Virus record (IMG/VR): IMGVR_UViG_2609459863_000015
Length of the DNA: 30,250 nucleotides
Reading direction: 5' to 3' (one strand)
Origin: a virus
Lineage: Duplodnaviria; Heunggongvirae; Uroviricota; Caudoviricetes
Program-made: the position numbers and the translations under genes
Part shown: positions 1 to 29,500 of the stretch, piece after piece
Position numbering within the stretch: the first letter of the stretch is position 1
Layout of the letters: the number at the start of each line of letters is the position of its first letter
Notes under the pieces: generated by a model
What the model saw: only the letters and a program-made list of their open reading frames with translations
Told to the model about the DNA's origin: nothing
Databases searched by the model: none

Positions 1-99
1 GTAATACGTTGACGGGGCAATATGCAGTTCGCTGCATAGCGGTCCGACCCCGTACTGCTCACGCAGCTTATCCAGCAGTGGCATCATTTTTTCCAGAGG
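1..99 (-). CDS. IS3-family transposase OrfB, N-terminal fragment (window-truncated), in the -1 frame overlapping the orfA stop
   Basis: Minus-strand translation of 1..99 gives [33 protein letters not shown], the typical N-terminus of an IS3-family OrfB. An A-rich run (GGAAAAAATGATG) at the orfA/orfB overlap is consistent with the programmed -1 frameshift window of this family. Confidence 0.6.
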
Positions 100-410
100 C
101 GGTCGAACTCCGCCTTCGCAAAATAAGCGGAAGCCTGGCGAAGGATATCGTTACTGCGGCGCAGTTCACGATTTTCACGTTCCAGCTCTTTCAGACGCTG
201 ACGTTCAGCGGTGGTGAGCCCGCCATCACCGCCTCCGGTATCCCGCTCATGCTGGCGTACCCAGACACGCAGAGTCTCCGGTGTACAGCCAATCTTTGGA
301 GCAATGGAACAAATTGCCGCCCACTGTGAGTCATATTCGCCCTGACTTTCCAGAACCATACGAATCGCCCTCTGACGGACTTCGGGGGAAAAACGAGTAT
401 TTTTAGTCAT
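84..410 (-). CDS. IS3-family transposase OrfA (helix-turn-helix plus leucine-zipper protein)
   Basis: 108 aa [64 protein letters not shown]...[26 protein letters not shown] matches IS629/IS1203 OrfA from memory. Confidence 0.85.
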
Positions 411-466
411 CCTGTTTACCTCTTTCTCAGGAAGTTTAGTCTCCAGGATTCCCGGGGCGGTTCACA

Positions 467-628
467 CCGCTTATTCGTGTCATGAACGGACACATCTACA
501 GAGTACCAGATCGTCGTAAGCGTAAACCGGAGCTGAAGCCTTCCGAAATACCAACACTGCTCGGATATACCGCCAGCCTGGTTGATAAAAAATGGTTGCG
601 ACTGGCAGCAAGGAGGAATCATGGCTGA
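467..628 (+). pseudogene. ninE: ninE-like gene, 5'-truncated by the IS insertion (start codon and first few codons lost)
   Basis: The frame opens directly at the IS boundary (465) and reads [53 protein letters not shown], resembling the NinE family of lambdoid nin regions. Its stop overlaps the ybcO-like start (ATGGCTGA). Confidence 0.5.
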
Positions 629-911
629 TTTGAGAAAAGCAGCGCGTAGTCGGGAATGCCAGGTAAGAATCCCTGGCGTATGTAATGGCAACCCTGAAAC
701 GTCTGTACTGGCACATATCCGGCTGACTGGATTGTGCGGCACCGGTACCAAACCGCCAGACCTGATTGCCACCATTGCATGTTCTGCCTGCCACGACGAA
801 ATCGACCGCCGCACACATTTTGTCGATGCTGCATATGCAAAAGAATGCGCGCTGGAAGGTATGGCGAGAACACAGGTTATCTGGCTGAAAGAGGGGGTTA
901 TTAAGGCGTGA
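621..911 (+). CDS. ybcO: DUF1364-family nin-region protein (YbcO-like, putative nuclease)
   Basis: ORF 582..911; the likely true start is the ATG at 621 ([26 protein letters not shown]...), preceded by AGGAGG at 611..616. Cys/His-rich. Its stop overlaps the rusA GTG start (GTGA). Confidence 0.7.
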
Positions 912-1270
912 ATACCTACAGCATCACATTACCCTGGCCTCCGAGCAATAATCGCTATTACCGCCATAATCGCGGGCGCACGCACGTCAGCGCAGAGGGG
1001 CAGGCATACCGCGATAACGTCGCCCGAATCATTAAAAACGCAATGCTGGATATCGGCCTGGCTATGCCTGTGAAAATCCGCATTGAGTGCCACATGCCGG
1101 ATCGCCGTCGCCGTGACCTGGATAATCTGCAAAAAGCCGCTTTTGACGCACTCACTAAAGCAGGTTTCTGGCTGGATGATGCTCAGGTCGTTGATTACCG
1201 CGTTGTGAAGATGCCTGTTACCAAAGGTGGGAGGCTGGAACTGACCATCACCGAAATGGGGAATGAATGA
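908..1270 (+). CDS. rusA: RusA crossover junction endodeoxyribonuclease (Holliday junction resolvase)
   Basis: 120 aa, [38 protein letters not shown]...[31 protein letters not shown]; matches E. coli RusA from memory. GTG start. Confidence 0.9.
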
Positions 1271-1492: not shown

Positions 1493-1876
1493 ATGCGTGA
1501 TATTCAGATGGTTCTTGAGCGTTGGGGAGCGTGGGCGGCTAATAATCATGAAGATGTGACCTGGTCGTCCATTGCCGCCGGTTTTAAGGGATTAATTACT
1601 TCAAAAGTAAAATCTCGCCCGCAATGTTGTGACGATGACGCGATGATCATTTGCGGGTGCATGGCCCGTCTGAAAAAGAACAACAGCGATTTGCACGATT
1701 TATTAGTAGATTATTATGTAGTCGGTATGACATTCATGTCACTGGCAGGTAAGCATTGCTGCTCTGATGGTTATATCGGGAAAAGGTTACAGAAGGCTGA
1801 GGGCATAATTGAAGGGATGTTAATGGCATTAGATATCCGGTTAGAGATGGATATCGTTGTTAATAACTCTAATTAA
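1493..1876 (+). CDS. Q: Late-gene antiterminator Q (DLP12 QuuD-like)
   Basis: ORF 1478..1876; the likely start is the ATG at 1493 ([22 protein letters not shown]...), with GGAG 6 nt upstream. Cys-rich putative zinc-binding segment [16 protein letters not shown]. Sits in the canonical Q position after rusA/ylcG. Confidence 0.8.
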
Positions 1877-2064: not shown

Positions 2065-3147
2065 TTAGAACTGGTAAACCATACCTACAGCAACGATATC
2101 ATCGGTAGCAACGCCAGATGCTTTCGTGAAATCGCTCTTATCAATCAGGTTGATTTTGTAGTCAACAAAAGTGGACATATTTTTGTTGAAGTAATAGGTT
2201 GCACCTACATCAACATATTCAACCAGGTCCTGATCACCCCAAACACCCAAGTCTTTTCCTTTAGAATGCAGGTAAGCAACGGATGGACGCAGGCCGAAGT
2301 CGAACTGATATTGTGCAACAGCTTCGAAGTTTTGTGCTTTGTTGGCAATATGGTTATTACCAAAAACAGTCATGTTCTGGGTTTCAGAATAGGTGGTGGC
2401 CAGATAGATGTTGTTCGCATCATATTTCAGACCAGCTGCCCATACTTCAGCATTTTGACCAGAAGCATTCAGACCGTTGTTACCGTAGATAACCTGATTA
2501 TTAGTGCGATCAGATTTAGCATAGGTTGCACCCACGCCGAATCCTTCATACTCATAAGTAGTTGAGAAACCGAAACCATCGCCATTAGCTTCAGTTACTT
2601 CATTTCGGTCATTTTTGCCCTGATACTGAGCTGCAAAGTTCAGGCCATCAACCAGACCAAAGAAGTCGTTGTTACGATAAGTTGCAACACCTGTGGTGCG
2701 ACCAGTCATGAATACATCTGTTTGGGTCCAGGTATCGCCACCGAATTCTGGCAGAACGTCAGTCCACGCACCGATGTCGTATGCTACACCGTAGTTACGG
2801 CCGTAATCGATTGAGCCGTAGTCACCGAATTTCAGGCCTGCAAATGCAAGACGGGTTTTGTCTTTGGAGGAACCTTGAGATTCAGCGCGGTTGCCTTTGA
2901 ATTCATATTCCCACTGACCGAAACCAGTCAGTTGATCGTTGATTTGGGTTTCACCTTTGAAGCCAAGACGGGCATAAGTAGTATCACCATCATCTGCATC
3001 ATTAGAGGAGAAGTAGTGCTTAGCATTAACTTTCCCGTACAGATCCAGCTTGTTACTGTCTTTATTATAAATTTCAGCTGCCTGAGCAGACATCGCCATC
3101 AGTACTGATGCAGCTACAGCAGAAATTGCCACTGTTAATTTTTTCAT
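2065..3147 (-). CDS. nmpC: Outer-membrane porin, NmpC/Lc (OmpC family), phage-borne moron, apparently intact
   Basis: 360 aa with signal peptide [40 protein letters not shown]... and C-terminal ...VAVGMVYQF (terminal Phe typical of OMPs). Matches NmpC from memory. Opposite strand to the flanking Q and lysis genes. Confidence 0.88.
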
Positions 3148-3735
3148 CGTGAGCCCTTTTTTTTGAACTATTATTAAAAAATGATGTCACTGCGCGATAA
3201 ATATTCATCTAATCAATGTGATTATTTCAAGATGTAAGTTTTAGTTTCTCATTTAATTTGTGAAGTAGATCTCTATTTTTATCTGAACTTTTTCTATCGA
3301 AACCTATTTATGGCTCTTATTTGAACAAAAATAAACCTATTAGCTAATTTATATTAATGGCTGTTATTTATGGGGGTTCTATAATTCGGCAGTTTAATTT
3401 AAATCAACTAAAAATAACCTCTGAAATTATTTATTGGTTATTTGTTGAGGTTTTCTTATGTATTTGTGGTGGTGTTTTGAACACTCGGTAGCATTCTCAT
3501 AAATATCATTCAGTGGTTTACGTACGTAAAAAATTGGTTATGCTGTTAAGAGTGGTTACTTCGTCACACAGCTTAAACCCGCCGTCGAGCTGGTTTTTCC
3601 ATTTTTTGAGTCTCGATATTAGCTGATAACTTAATACCTGAGTTATTCACTGACTCCGAGTCTGTTACGTTTCTGCTTTTTTGCGATACGTTGTATTCCC
3701 TCAATTTACACCCGCTTTGTCTGCGAGGTGGGGTT
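3148..3735. promoter_or_regulatory. AT-rich divergent intergenic region: porin promoter and 5' UTR on the minus strand, upstream region and RBS of the holin on the plus strand
   Basis: About 590 bp without convincing ORFs and very AT-rich between 3150 and 3480. GAGGTGGGG RBS just before the holin ATG at 3736. Confidence 0.4.
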
Positions 3736-3951
3736 ATGAAATCCATGGATAAGTTAACAACGGGTGTCGCCTATGGCACCTCAGCAGGTAGTGCCGGTTA
3801 CTGGTTTTTACAGCTGCTCGATAAAGTCACGCCCTCACAGTGGGCAGCAATAGGTGTGCTGGGTAGCCTGGTATTTGGCCTGCTGACGTACCTGACAAAC
3901 CTTTATTTCAAGATTAAAGAAGATAAGCGCAAGGCTGCGAGAGGTGAATAA
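3736..3951 (+). CDS. S: Class II holin / pinholin (phage 21 S21-like) with dual-start motif
   Basis: 71 aa [71 protein letters not shown]. Met1-Lys-Ser-Met4 gives antiholin and holin starts (3736 and 3745). The track ORF begins further upstream at a TTG. Confidence 0.85.
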
Positions 3952-4448
3952 TGCCTCCATCATTACGAAAAGCCGTTGCTGCTGCTATTGGTGGCGGAGC
4001 AATTGCTACAGCATCAGTGTTAATCACTGGCCCAAGTGGTAACGATGGTCTGGAAGGTGTCAGCTACATACCATACAAAGATATTGTTGGTGTATGGACT
4101 GTATGTCACGGGCATACAGGAAAAGACATCATGCTCGGTAAAACGTATACCGAAGCAGAGTGCAAAGCCCTCCTGAATAAAGACCTTGCCACTGTCGCCA
4201 GGCAAATTAACCCGTATATCGAAGTCGATATACCGGAAACAACGCGCGGCGCTCTTTACTCATTCGTTTACAACGTGGGTGCTGGCAATTTCAGAACATC
4301 GACGCTTCTTCGCAAAATAAACCAGGGCGATATCAAAGGCGCATGTGATCAGCTACGTCGCTGGACATATGCTGGCGGTAAGCAATGGAAAGGGCTGATG
4401 ACTCGCCGTGAGATTGAGCGTGAAGTCTGTTTGTGGGGGCAGCAATGA
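3951..4448 (+). CDS. R: SAR (signal-anchor-release) endolysin, lysozyme family
   Basis: 165 aa. N-terminal Gly/Ala-rich weakly hydrophobic segment [20 protein letters not shown] followed by a lysozyme-like domain. Start overlaps the holin stop (TAATG). Confidence 0.85.
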
Positions 4449-4882
4449 GCAGAGTAACTGCGATTATCTTCGCTCTGGTTATCTGCATCATCGTCTGCCT
4501 GTCATGGGCTGTTAATCATTACCGTGATAACGCCATGACCTACAAAGAACAGCGCGACAAAGCCACATCCATCATCGCTGACATGCAGAAGCGTCAACGT
4601 GACGTAGCAGAACTCGATGCCAGATATACAAAGGAACTTGCTGATGCTAACGCGACTATCGAAAGTCTCCGTGATGATGTTTCTGCTGGGCGTAAGCGGC
4701 TGCAAGTCGCCGCCTCCTGTGCAAAGTCAAAGACCGGAGCCAGCAGCATGGGCGATGGAGAAAGCCCAAGACTTACAGCAGATGCTGAACTCAATTATTA
4801 CCGTCTCCGAAGTGGAATCGACAGGATAACCGCGCAGGTTAACTACCTGCAGGAGTACATCAGGACGCAATGTCTGAAATAA
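4445..4882 (+). CDS. Rz: Rz i-spanin (inner-membrane spanin subunit)
   Basis: Start ATG at 4445 overlaps the endolysin stop (ATGA). N-terminal TM segment [16 protein letters not shown] followed by a coiled-coil-like, charged periplasmic domain. The track ORF starts at a GTG at 4433. Confidence 0.8.
4644..4829 (+). CDS. Rz1: Rz1 o-spanin (outer-membrane lipoprotein), embedded in the +1 frame of Rz
   Basis: [36 protein letters not shown]...: signal peptide with lipobox VSGC followed by a Pro-rich mature part, entirely inside Rz. Start chosen at the ATG at 4644 for a proper n-region; AAGGAA lies upstream. Confidence 0.7.
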
Positions 4883-4913
4883 TTTTTTTGCAAATCACAA
4901 AGTCCATTTAATG

Positions 4914-4972
4914 AGCCTCGCGATGCGGGGCTTTTTTGCAATAAATGCGTACCGCAACGCATGTTTTTTTTT
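4914..4972 (+). terminator. Tandem Rho-independent terminators downstream of the lysis cassette
   Basis: Imperfect hairpin GCCTCGCG-ATG-CGGGGC followed by TTTTTT (4914..4937), then ATGCGT-ACCGCA-ACGCAT followed by G plus nine T (4945..4972). Confidence 0.55.
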
Positions 4973-5087
4973 ACACCGAACCTGCCCCTTTGGAATGGGC
5001 CTTTGAGGATACCAGTTAGTGCTGGCGAGCCTCGGTGGGCTGGTTTCCTGTGCGGCAAAGGTTCATTTCAAATGGTAGGTAAACGTT

Positions 5088-5609
5088 ATGAATATCGTGC
5101 CACTTAATTACAAAGGTGAAATTGTCAGTTTCAACACTGATGGTTGGATCAACGTCACAGGTGTTGCTGAGAGATTTGGGAAACGCATTGATAACTGGAT
5201 GCGTTTGGCAGAAACGCTTGAATACGTTCGTGCTTTAGACGAAGCGTTGACCGGGAAAGAATCTCAAATTTTACATCCCTCACAATCGAGGTATGTAAAA
5301 ACCAGCAAGGCACGAAAGGACAGGGGTGGTGGTACGTGGCTACATCCAAAACTTTCAGTTGCATTTGCCCGTTGGTGTGATGCTCGTTTTGCTGTGTGGT
5401 GCGACCTGCACATTGATAGTCTGCTTCGCGGTGAACTGACTGAGCAGCAGAAATATGAGCAAGCATGTCGCATTCGCGATGACCGGAAATCAAAAGCCAG
5501 CAATGGGGCAAGAGAGATGGCTCGCTGGCGATGGGATAAGCCGGTTATTGAAGCAAATGTTGAGTACTGGCGCGAGCAACTGCAGTTGACTCTCGATATC
5601 GCGTGCTGA
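5088..5609 (+). CDS. KilA-N domain-like protein (putative DNA-binding, phage-associated); family assignment tentative
   Basis: 173 aa. N-terminal segment ...FNTDGWINVTGVAERFGKRIDNWMRLAETLEYVRAL... resembles the KilA-N / APSES-like fold; basic C-terminal half. Occupies the position that bor holds in lambda. Confidence 0.5.
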   Translation: MNIVPLNYKGEIVSFNTDGWINVTGVAERFGKRIDNWMRLAETLEYVRALDEALTGKESQILHPSQSRYVKTSKARKDRGGGTWLHPKLSVAFARWCDARFAVWCDLHIDSLLRGELTEQQKYEQACRIRDDRKSKASNGAREMARWRWDKPVIEANVEYWREQLQLTLDIAC

Positions 5610-5748
5610 TGGCAAACGCAAAACTGCGTTATCGAAAAAATCAAAGCATTACTAGAACTGAGCAACGGCTATCCATTACAAAGCCCATCTACGGGTGGGC
5701 TTGATAATGGCTTATACCCTGCACGGGATAACTTAACTGATATCCCTT

Positions 5749-5913
5749 TTAACGGATAAAGGCATTCAAGCCTGACACATCATGCGCTGTATCGTCGCCG
5801 TATTCCCGTATTAACAGAGACCGTAGCCCGACGGGGAACTCCTTCTGCGCGAGTGTGCGGGAATAATCAAAAACGATGCACACCGGGGTTACCGGGTACA
5901 CATATTTCATCAT
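5749..5913 (-). CDS. Hypothetical small protein (54 aa), possible third gene of the minus-strand cassette
   Basis: Not in the ORF track. Minus-strand ATGATG at 5913/5910, translation MMKYVYPVTPVCIVFDYSRTLAQKEFPVGLRSLLIREYGDDTAHDVSGLNAFIR*. Starts 45 nt after the DUF1398 stop. Weak RBS, no homology recalled. Confidence 0.2.
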   Translation of the reverse strand: MMKYVYPVTPVCIVFDYSRTLAQKEFPVGLRSLLIREYGDDTAHDVSGLNAFIR

Positions 5914-5958
5914 GCCAGCGAGTCCGGTTCTGGCACGGAAGAAACCGGACGTTATGAT

Positions 5959-6369
5959 TTAGTGCGGAAATATTTGTGTAGTGTTCTGAATGTTCTCAGT
6001 AAAGAGTAATGAATTATCAAAGGTATAGTAATACCTTTTGTTTTCGTGGATATTTGTAATCCATCTGAAAACCCCTGCTGTAGCAAGATTTTTCCTGTAT
6101 TCGTAAAATGATAACTCTCCTGATTTGAATCCTTTTAAGGTGGCTTCTATAAGGCATTTATTTTTTGAAAATCTTACATTTACAACCTTACCCTGTCCTT
6201 TTATTAAAACCGTATTATCGTTTTCAAGAACAAGATGAATATTCTCTGTAGCTAAATAGTAAATGTAATGTGAGACATTGTGACGTTTTAGTTCAGAATA
6301 AAACCAGTGATAGTTTAAATTATTTCGCACTTTATCGAATATTTGTTTAAAAATGGCAACCTGAGCCAT
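5959..6369 (-). CDS. ybcV: DUF1398-family protein (YbcV/YdfO-like), function unknown
   Basis: ORF 5959..6384; the likely start is the internal Met ([58 protein letters not shown]...) with AAGG upstream. Very AT-rich coding sequence. Resembles DLP12 YbcV and Qin YdfO from memory. Confidence 0.65.
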
Positions 6370-6425
6370 TGTAGTACCTTCCATGTGATATGAGGGGCGT
6401 AGTCTGCACGATTATCTAAATTGCT

Positions 6426-25927: not shown

Positions 25928-26527
25928 ATGCGTAAAGTTTGTGCAGCAATTTTGTCCGCAGCCATTTGTCTGGCCGTATCCGGTGCGCCTGCATGGGCGT
26001 CTGAACATCAGTCCACGCTGAGCGCGGGGTATCTTCATGCCTCGACGAACGTCCCCGGCAGTGATGATCTGAACGGGATTAACGTGAAATACCGTTATGA
26101 GTTTACGGACACACTGGGGCTGGTGACGTCATTCAGCTATGCAGGAGACAAGAATCGCCAGCTGACCCGTTACAGCGATACCCGCTGGCATGAAGATTCC
26201 GTTCGTAACCGCTGGTTCAGCGTAATGGCGGGGCCGTCTGTGCGCGTAAATGAATGGTTCAGCGCGTATGCGATGGCGGGTGTAGCTTACAGCCGTGTGT
26301 CGACTTTCTCCGGGGATTATCTTCGCGTAACTGACAACAAGGGGAAAAAGCACGATGTGCTGACCGGAAGTGATGACGGTCGCCACAGCAACACGTCTCT
26401 GGCGTGGGGGGCTGGCGTGCAGTTTAACCCGACCGAATCCGTGGCCATTGATATTGCTTATGAAGGCTCCGGCAGTGGTGACTGGCGCACTGACGGTTTC
26501 ATCGTGGGTGTCGGTTATAAATTCTGA
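25928..26527 (+). CDS. lom: Lom outer-membrane protein (Ail/Lom/PagC family), moron
   Basis: 199 aa with signal peptide MRKVCAAILSAAICLAVSGAPAWA and C-terminal ...DGFIVGVGYKF; beta-barrel OMP family, lambda lom position. Confidence 0.85.
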   Translation: MRKVCAAILSAAICLAVSGAPAWASEHQSTLSAGYLHASTNVPGSDDLNGINVKYRYEFTDTLGLVTSFSYAGDKNRQLTRYSDTRWHEDSVRNRWFSVMAGPSVRVNEWFSAYAMAGVAYSRVSTFSGDYLRVTDNKGKKHDVLTGSDDGRHSNTSLAWGAGVQFNPTESVAIDIAYEGSGSGDWRTDGFIVGVGYKF

Positions 26528-26585: not shown

Positions 26586-29500
26586 GTGAATATGGCAGTA
26601 AAGATTTCAGGTGTACTGAAAGACGGCACAGGAAAACCGGTACAGAACTGCACAATCCAGCTGAAAGCAAAACGTAACAGCACCACGGTGGTGGTGAACA
26701 CGCTGGCCTCAGAAAATCCGGATGAAGCCGGGCGTTACAGCATGGACGTTGAGTACGGGCAGTACAGCGTTATTCTGTTGGTGGAGGGATTCCCGCCGTC
26801 ACATGCCGGGACCATCACCGTGTATGAAGATTCCCGACCCGGTACGCTGAATGATTTTCTCGGTGCCATGACGGAGGATGATGCCCGTCCTGAGGCACTG
26901 CGCCGTTTTGAACTGATGGTGGAAGAGGTGGCGCGTAACGCGTCCGCGGTGGCACAGAACACGGCAGCCGCGAAGAAGTCAGCCAGCGATGCCGGCACAT
27001 CAGCACGTGAGGCGGCAACCCATGCGACTGATGCTGCAGGCTCAGCACGCGCAGCCAGCACATCAGCCGGGCAGGCCGCGACGTCGGCTCAGTCAGCGTC
27101 TTCCAGCGCAGGAACGGCATCAACAAAGGCTACTGAAGCATCAAAAAGTGCTGCCGCTGCAGAGTCCTCAAAAAGCGCGGCAGCTACCAGTGCCGGTGCG
27201 GCGAAAACGTCAGAAACGAATGCGGCAGCGTCACAAAAATCTACAGCCACTTCTGCATCCGCAGCGACCACAAAGGCGTCAGAAGCTGCCACCTCAGCCC
27301 GGGATGCGGCGGCCTCAAAAGAGGCAGCGAAATCATCAGAAACGAACGCATCATCAAGCGCCAGTAGTGCCGCTTCCTCGGCAACGGCGGCAGGAAATTC
27401 CGCGAAGGCGGCAAAGACGTCTGAGACGAACGCCAGGTCTTCTGAAACGGCAGCGGGACAGAGTGCCTCAGCTGCGGCAGGCTCAAAAACAGCGGCTGCA
27501 TCATCTGCCAGTGCCGCCTCAACAAGTGCCGGGCAGGCCTCAGCCAGTGCCACCGCTGCCGGAAAGTCGGCAGAAAGTGCCGCCTCGTCTGCTTCAACAG
27601 CCACAACGAAGGCTGGCGAAGCCACTGAACAGGCCAGTGCAGCAGCGAGGTCTGCTTCCGCAGCGAAGACATCCGAGACGAACGCGAAAGCGTCGGAAAC
27701 CAGCGCAGAATCCTCAAAAACGGCTGCCGCATCGTCCGCCAGTTCGGCGGCTTCATCGGCATCATCGGCGTCAGCTTCAAAAGATGAGGCGACCAGACAG
27801 GCGTCAGCAGCGAAGGGCAGCGCCACGACAGCATCCACGAAGGCGACAGAGGCTGCTGGCAGTGCGACAGCGGCAGCACAGAGCAAAAGTACGGCAGAAA
27901 CCGCGGCAACGCGCGCCGAGACAGCGGCAAAACGGGCAGAGGATATTGCATCCGCCGTGGCGCTTGAGGATGCGAGCACGACGAAAAAGGGGATAGTCCA
28001 GCTCAGTAGTGCGACCAACAGCACTTCCGAGTCACAGGCGGCAACGCCAAAAGCCGTTAAGGCCGCGTATGACCTGGCTAACGGGAAATACACCGCACAG
28101 GATGCAACGACAGCACAGAAAGGGATAATCCAGTTAAGCAGCGCGACCAACAGCACGTCTGAAACGCTGGCGGCAACGCCAAAGGCAGTAAAAGCAGCCA
28201 ATGACAATGCTGAGAAACGTCTGCAGAAAGATCAGAACGGTGCGGATATCCCTGGCAAAGACACCTTTACGAAAAATATTGGTGCCTGCCGTGCCTTCGG
28301 TGGGTCAGTAAGCACAACAACAGGAAACTGGACGACTGCACAGTTTATCGAGTGGCTGGATTCTCAGGGAGCATTTAACCATCCCTACTGGATGTGCAAG
28401 GGGTCCTGGTCTTATGGCAATAATAAAATCATTACTGATACTGACTGCGGTAATATTCATCTCGCCGGAGCTGTCATTGAAGTAATGGGGATAAAGTCAG
28501 CGATGACGATCCGCATTACCACACCGACCACCTCCACTGGTGGTGGAACAACTAACGCCCAGTTTACCTATATTAATCACGGAACAGATTATTCACCTGG
28601 CTGGCGAAGGGACTATAACTCCAGAAATAAGCCAACGGCATCAGAGATCGGGGCGTTACCGTCAGGTGGAACAGCAGTATCATCAGTTAATCTGGCTTCA
28701 AAAGGTCGGGTAACCGCGCTGACAGACAATACGCAGGGGGCAGCAGGTCTTGAGTTATACGAGGTGTATAACAACGGATATCCAACAGCGTATGGAAATA
28801 TCATTCACCTGAAAGGGATGACAGCCGTTGGCGAAGGTGAGTTACTCATCGGCTGGAGGGGTACAAGCGGTGCTCATGCTCCGGCATTTATTCGTTCACG
28901 ACGGGATATGACCGACGCAAACTGGTCGCCGTGGGCGCAGCTTTACACCTCGGCTCATCCTCCTGCAGAGTTTTATCCAGTCGGTGCACCAATCCCGTGG
29001 CCATCAGATACCGTTCCGTCTGGTTATGCCCTGATGCAGGGGCAGACTTTTGACAAATCTGCTTACCCGAAACTTGCAGCCGCTTATCCGTCAGGCGTGA
29101 TCCCTGATATGCGTGGCTGGACGATTAAGGGCAAGCCCGCCAGTGGTCGTGCCGTATTGTCTCAGGAACAGGATGGCATTAAATCGCATACCCACAGCGC
29201 CAGCGCATCCAGTACGGATTTGGGGACGAAAACCACATCATCTTTTGATTACGGCACTAAATCCACGAATAACACTGGTGCACATACCCATAGTATTAGC
29301 GGGACAGCAAATAGTGCCGGTGCGCACCAACACAAGAGTTCCGGTGCATTTGGTGGCACGAACACGAGCATTTTTCCTAATGGTTATACTGCGATTTCAA
29401 ATCTAAGCGCGGGGATTATGAGCACAACAAGCGGTAGTGGCCAGACTCGTAATGCAGGGAAGACATCATCAGATGGTGCTCATACCCACTCGCTGTCCGG

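Follow-up and report, generated by a model that had tools for sequence, protein, structure and literature searches.

An IS629-group insertion sequence at codon 3 of ninE in a lambda-like, DLP12-related prophage

Introduction

An element of the IS629 group has most likely transposed into ninE of a lambda-like, DLP12-related prophage as a simple insertion, leaving the gene disrupted. The DNA analysed here (the window) is 30,250 nt long and forms the beginning of draft contig JHDI01000021.1 (GCA_000601235.1); gene coordinates are equal, and the sequences are identical wherever the two were compared, which took in all of the IS fragment. In the sequence of events that we envisage, the element would have entered ninE at codon 3, between the second and fourth codons, by the copy-out/paste-in route with an OrfAB transposase made by −1 frameshifting. 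It would thereby point against the nin-Q transcription unit and leave ybcO, rusA, ylcG and Q intact, its far end would adjoin ybcN...ATGGCTACAC with a 3-bp CAC (or 4-bp CACC) duplication, and translation of ninE would be lost through separation from its Shine-Dalgarno sequence (SD) and ATG and from its coupling to ybcN, with whatever consequences for expression this may carry.

Such an event is of a known type, involving a known element and a dispensable gene, and it adds one more IS629-group insertion in a lambdoid prophage. The nin region of lambda, which includes ninE, can be deleted (nin5) with viability kept, and therefore the expected phenotypic cost is nil; we know of no function for NinE. 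A literature search for IS629 in ninE returned nothing specific, the word 'nine' mostly matching the numeral.

Anatomy of the insertion sequence

The fragment of the element and its parts, all on the minus strand, are as follows.

1..464 (−): IS3-family element of the IS629/IS1203/IS3411 group, left (IRL-proximal) 464 nt, recognised by identity to full-length copies
440..464 (−): IRL terminal inverted repeat, 5'-TGAACCGCCCCGGGAATCCTGGAGA on the IS strand, with the IS tip at 464, from comparison of IRL with IRR
84..410 (−): orfA, 108 aa, HTH DNA-binding part of the transposase (PF01527 HTH_Tnp_1, 1.8e-12)
13..129 (−): ALIL pseudoknot, stimulator of the −1 programmed frameshift for the OrfA-OrfB fusion (Rfam RF01497)
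1..138 (−): beginning of the orfB (DDE transposase) frame, −1 frame, from three-frame translation

That this is an IS3-family, IS629-like element, as the preliminary description had it, is upheld by the PF01527 domain of OrfA, by an ALIL match that spans all model positions (1-117 of 117; 120.2 bits, E 3.5e-32), by the terminal repeat, and by full-length relatives 99.6-99.8% identical to the window fragment, whose annotation reads 'IS3 family transposase' and includes a programmed frameshift. The two-ORF organisation of the family, namely orfA with its HTH and orfB in the −1 frame reached by programmed frameshifting, is found in the window: the orfB frame stays open past the end of orfA until it runs off base 1, and in homologous copies PGAP annotates a joined CDS with a programmed frameshift. 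On the IS strand, the one end that lies in the window begins 5'-TGAACCGCCCCGGG..., in agreement with the 5'-TG...CA-3' termini of IS3-family elements. The exact OrfA protein occurs on at least 1,000 contigs, where it is named transposase under generic source names. In the closest relatives the IS measures 1,310 bp, of which the window holds 35%, the other 846 nt lying beyond its start. The catalytic part of the window copy is likewise beyond the contig, and an rve domain is present in the orfB product of the other IS3-family element found at the same site, in JNE082640.

The end of the element is defined to the base. The IS tip ...CCCGGGGCGGTTCA stops at base 464; all the best matches listed in a search with 1-464 extend to query position 464, and full-length and partial copies in unrelated contexts diverge directly past the terminal A at that position. 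In traR, DUF968, IS66, DUF4942, STY4851 and ybcN contexts, all copies diverge right past ...GGCGGTTCA. The homology of IS copies thus stops exactly where the terminal repeat had been said to end, with ninE adjoining at 465. Of the first 25 positions of the repeat, the single end within the window, 23 are identical to the IRR of full-length copies. The orientation against the nin/Q genes was also read correctly, with both orfA and the ALIL pseudoknot on the minus strand.

The break point in ninE and the remnant of the gene

Two features, both on the plus strand, represent what is left of ninE.

465..628 (+): ninE remnant, codon 3/4 to stop, from alignment to intact ninE and PF05322
482..628 (+): residual 48-aa ORF from Met9 of NinE, with an in-frame ATG at 482 and no SD upstream

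Uninterrupted homologues, with which a comparison had been proposed, are available in E. coli UTME-7 and in the infective phage PhiR70_1, and they place the break at ninE codon 3, between bases 464 and 465. In both references the intact gene reads GGAGGCGTA ATG GCT ACA CCG CTT ATT CGT GTC ATG AAC, its ATG overlapping the ybcN stop as TAATG. The window picks up ninE at CACCGCTT and 465-628 aligns to codons 3-56, the terminal A of the IS recreating the ACA codon, so that the frame is short only of Met-Ala ('MA'). Over residues 3-56 the remnant shares 98% identity with intact NinE proteins of 56 aa, it falls in the same 90% cluster as proteins named NinE family protein, and its synteny is that of PhiR70_1, all of which place it in the NinE family. 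The Pfam profile search gave 23.2 bits for PF05322 (6.3e-5), below the 25-bit cut-off because the fragment is truncated.

Neither an ATG, nor an SD, nor the ybcN stop/start overlap precedes the remnant. The preliminary description had stated that the first codons of ninE were removed together with their upstream context, and the loss of 'MA', of the SD and of the coupling to ybcN agrees with it, while the insertion event itself we infer. It had also stated that the reading frame lacks a start codon, which is true of the junction at 464/465 and not of the whole remnant, as the in-frame ATG at 482 (Met9) leaves a 48-aa ORF. No recognisable SD was seen in the sequence ahead of this ATG. Being separated from its SD and ATG and from the TAATG overlap with ybcN, ninE would be effectively knocked out, with at most a poorly translated 48-aa Met9 product remaining. 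The identical 48-aa protein is encoded on 65 contigs, and PGAP names the Met9 ORF 'NinE family protein' in analogous genomes; these public annotations are leftovers of disrupted genes.

Other breaks are found in this part of the gene. In ABZQFC010000006.1 (5880-6010), a deletion without any IS has joined codon 36 of a lambda-P-like gene to ninE codon 6, and the fusion adjoins a tRNA gene and an integrase-like remnant. In STEC383 (NZ_CP091026.1, listed with this deletion case), homology breaks at about the same ninE position.

Downstream genes and the rest of the prophage

The genes that follow ninE are complete.

621..911 (+): ybcO (DUF1364/YbcO), intact, with its own strong SD, AAGGAGG (PF07102, 1.6e-41, profile 2-92 of 92)
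908..1270 (+): rusA, Holliday-junction resolvase, intact (PF05866, 6.9e-23)
1493..1876 (+): late antiterminator Q (QuuD type), intact (PF06530, 3.5e-53, profile 1-118 of 118)

Downstream of ninE, ylcG is also full length, and the order in UTME-7 and PhiR70_1 is ybcN-ninE-ybcO-rusA-ylcG-Q-porin-S-R-Rz. The remaining window is a lambda-type late region, with a porin moron, holin, lysozyme, Rz, terminase through J, Lom and tail fibre, and matches that of the infective phage PhiR70_1 at 96.7% identity over 95% coverage. A 360-aa OmpC/NmpC-type porin gene (2065-3147, −), a moron found also in DLP12 and PhiR70_1, lies between Q and the holin gene on the opposite strand. Accessory genes interspersed with those for lysis, packaging and the tail encode a KilA-N domain protein (5088-5609, +), a DUF1398 protein (5959-6384, −) and a Lom/Ail outer-membrane protein (25928-26527, +). 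Two 107-nt direct repeats, 75% identical and spaced by 132 nt (27967-28205), lie inside the 1,026-aa tail-fibre gene and may be its Phage_fiber_2 repeats.

The contig start and the left junction

At base 1 the IS was cut by the assembly, through collapse of a repeat, and not by any biological truncation. As the contig starts inside the IS, the window shows neither the left junction nor the target duplication, nor whether the element is whole; for the same reason, the completeness of the prophage should not be judged from JHDI01000021.1. The right junction recurs base for base in other draft assemblies, at one locus in 1 sample and at another in 3 samples plus 2 similar places, and therefore it is no chimera of a single assembly. 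The exact right junction was found 0 times in 5,426 complete E. coli genomes, GTDB representatives, IMG/VR and metagenome contigs.

A candidate for the missing side exists. The IMG/VR contig IMGVR_UViG_2606217107_000021 (1-303) ends in ybcN...ATGGCTACAC|TGAACCGCCCCGGG, written also as ybcN...GCGTAATGGCTACAC|TGAACCGCCCCGGGTTTCC, and its ybcN allele is that of JNE082640, a genome which shares the ninE allele of the window. This contig may carry the left junction that belongs to the window insertion, in which case the target duplication would be the 3-bp CAC. Its IS end shares only 97% identity with full-length copies of the window type, and the pairing of the two junctions is therefore tentative. 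In related full-length copies, the target duplications are TGG, AGG and ACAC.

Insertion, rearrangement or artefact

The main real rival to a simple insertion is that the IS marks the boundary of a rearrangement or adjacent deletion, produced by IS-IS recombination or by IS-mediated deletion, in which ybcN and the upstream early region were deleted or moved and the prophage was left truncated on its left side at ninE codon 3. We consider this unlikely, and the arguments run both ways. The contig stops within the IS, with the far side out of view, and one full-length copy examined has no duplication. In O157 genomes only 21 of 47 IS629 sites carry matching duplications and 26 do not, so that IS-associated deletion or rearrangement is common (PMC3271280). 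The deletion without an IS that ends at ninE codon 6 in ABZQFC010000006.1 indicates, moreover, that the ninE region does undergo deletions. Against this, the break at 464/465 is exactly the one predicted from a 3-bp (CAC) duplication, a contig of the form ybcN...ATGGCTACAC|IS is known, and both complete analogues at ninE, in O157:H7 3-5-1 and JNE082640, are simple insertions closed by target duplications. That the junction is an assembly artefact, such as a chimeric contig end from repeat collapse, has next to no likelihood: the IS does sit at the extreme end of a draft contig, but the identical junction is present in the other assemblies and samples mentioned above, and the break falls precisely at the canonical IS tip, as real transposition predicts.

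A different proposal concerns the effect of the element, which might activate ybcO-rusA, normally silent in the lysogen, through outward transcription; this we judge very improbable. In the IS3 family, the IRL carries an inward-facing transposase promoter and an outward −35 element is located at the IRR, and the end facing ninE is the IRL. Furthermore, no sigma-70-like promoter was predicted on the plus strand in 1-464 or anywhere in the full-length copy. What speaks for activation is that the IS lies about 440 bp upstream of rusA, with ybcO and rusA intact, and that the quiescent rusA of K-12 is switched on by upstream IS2 or IS10 insertions (PMC1636454). Simple insertion of an IS629-group element stands as the most likely account of the junction.

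Polarity on ybcO, rusA and Q

The preliminary description had suggested that the antisense IS might exert polar effects on ybcO, rusA and Q. N-modified transcription is classically resistant to IS polarity, and a polar effect on these genes is plausible solely for transcription that is unmodified by N. In the full-length copy of the window type, no promoter-like site on either strand rose above shuffle expectation and no convincing intrinsic terminator was found in the nin direction, where one terminator-like hairpin occurs at chance level; any polarity would therefore have to be Rho-dependent. Lower Q expression, if it occurs, could then be put down to Rho, which would terminate transcripts within the untranslated antisense RNA of the IS (about 1.3 kb).

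Isoform and distribution of the element

According to the ISfinder rule, isoforms share at least 95% nucleotide identity with named members. Plasmids of E. coli carry full-length copies (1,310 bp) to which the 464 nt of the window are 99.6-99.8% identical, and the relatives at or above 99.6% are mostly on ExPEC/APEC-type plasmids. Over the same 464 of 1,310 nt, identity is 97.4% to an O157:H7 copy labelled 'IS1203 family' by PGAP and 95.9-97.2% to Shigella flexneri copies; the copy at ninE in O157:H7 3-5-1 is 95.5% identical over 464 nt. Rump et al. described IS629 subtypes 4-5% apart, related to IS1203, Shigella IS629 and O26 IS629, and reported for IS629 3-4-bp duplications, targets without sequence specificity and 62% of copies in prophages (PMC3271280). 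Judged by nucleotide identity, the window copy is probably a distinct isoform inside the IS629/IS1203/IS3411 swarm, and its ALIL pseudoknot fits the group.

IS629-type elements had been taken as a hint of a pathogenic lineage, and this did not hold. The group has matches in 3,773 of 5,426 complete E. coli genomes (about 70%) and therefore gives no lineage hint; 6,471 of its places are on plasmids, and a scan of GTDB representatives found the exact 25-nt tip also in Shigella, Mixta (M. mediterraneensis), Phytobacter, Kosakonia, Yersinia (Y. similis) and other genomes. An EHEC or Shigella background should consequently not be deduced from the presence of an IS629-group element. The same tip was seen in genomes labelled Martelella alba, at no fewer than 9 loci on 8 scaffolds and mostly at scaffold ends, as well as in MAGs labelled Dormibacterota, Saccharimonadales and Planococcaceae. 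This occurrence means either a very wide spread or else contamination.

Clustering of insertions at the start of ninE

At ninE codons 2-4, a span of 4 bp has received three independent IS3-family insertions of two IS types: the one of the window type, that of O157:H7 3-5-1, and that of an IS911-like element in JNE082640 and draft contigs (one plus 16 similar places). The methods that found these events can pick up disruption only within about 24 bp of the ninE start, and by our own rough estimate the clustering within 4 bp has p about 0.07, which is weak evidence for a local hot spot. It is conceivable, and in our view quite doubtful, that IS3-family elements land preferentially in ninE codons 1-4, where the ybcN stop and the ninE start meet, and that such insertions would perhaps be retained through weaker Q read-through that grounds the prophage. 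If the clustering is real, it would be a small addition to knowledge of IS3-family target choice.

Two stronger versions of target preference were discarded. A strong hot spot at ybcN/ninE is at odds with the genome counts: of 2,955 complete genomes with this junction, 2,943 have it uninterrupted. An extended IS629 target consensus had been considered on account of five unrelated insertion flanks that resembled the ninE flank, for instance TACCGCTTATTGCGTG in a DUF968 gene; these had been selected by BLAST, and the likeness is an effect of that selection which disappears in an unbiased sample. In this sample, of 225 distinct flanks from exact-tip scans of GTDB representatives and IMG/VR, the information content exceeded 0.15 bit at no position, and likeness to the ninE flank of the window equalled shuffle expectation. 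The absence of a target consensus in the 225 flanks agrees with previous work (PMC3271280).

Comparison with known systems

Two complete insertions in the same few codons of ninE are available for comparison with the window.

NZ_CP038416.1 (O157:H7 3-5-1), locus 3155-4464: complete 1,310-bp IS629-group copy in ninE, ATGGCT[ACAC]-IS-[ACAC]CGCTT
NZ_AP027206.1 (E. coli JNE082640), locus 4723-5980: other IS3-family element, 1,258 bp, with ends TGTAGTGG...CCACTACA, [CTAC]-IS-[CTAC]

The insertion of O157:H7 3-5-1 lies in the same gene and orientation, with the left flank ...ATGGCTACAC|IS, and it leaves a 48-aa Met9 ORF annotated NinE family protein. Its right junction, in contrast, falls one base earlier, and the duplication there is ACAC (4 bp). 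With an IS copy that diverges by 4.5% from that of the window and a ninE allele that differs at 4 positions, it represents an independent event. The 1,258-bp element of JNE082640, which we take to be IS911-like, is inserted 3 bp upstream of the site in the window, with a 4-bp CTAC duplication, and leaves an identical 48-aa ninE ORF. Among the 24 contigs with this ORF that were read, the largest group (one draft contig plus 16 similar places) has the junction of JNE082640 type.

As a group, the IS629/IS1203/IS3411 elements of O157:H7, O111, O26 and Shigella share with the window copy relatives of 1,310 bp, TGAACCGCCCCGGG... inverted repeats, the orfA/orfB arrangement with −1 frameshift and ALIL, 3-4-bp duplications in the complete copies examined, and a preference for prophages (PMC3271280). 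The window copy differs from the O157:H7 and S. flexneri copies examined in being only 95.5-97.4% identical to them. In E. coli K-12, the ruv suppressors rus-1 and rus-2 are insertions of IS2 or IS10 into the same nin segment, upstream of rusA, of the closely related prophage DLP12; there, outward transcription activates rusA (PMC1636454), whereas no outward promoter is indicated in the IS of the window. In the Stx prophages phiPA2 and phiPA8, IS629 is likewise found in the early or nin-side region of a lambdoid prophage, with a phenotype that comes from a disrupted methyltransferase gene (PMC10810198), while the gene disrupted in the window is ninE.
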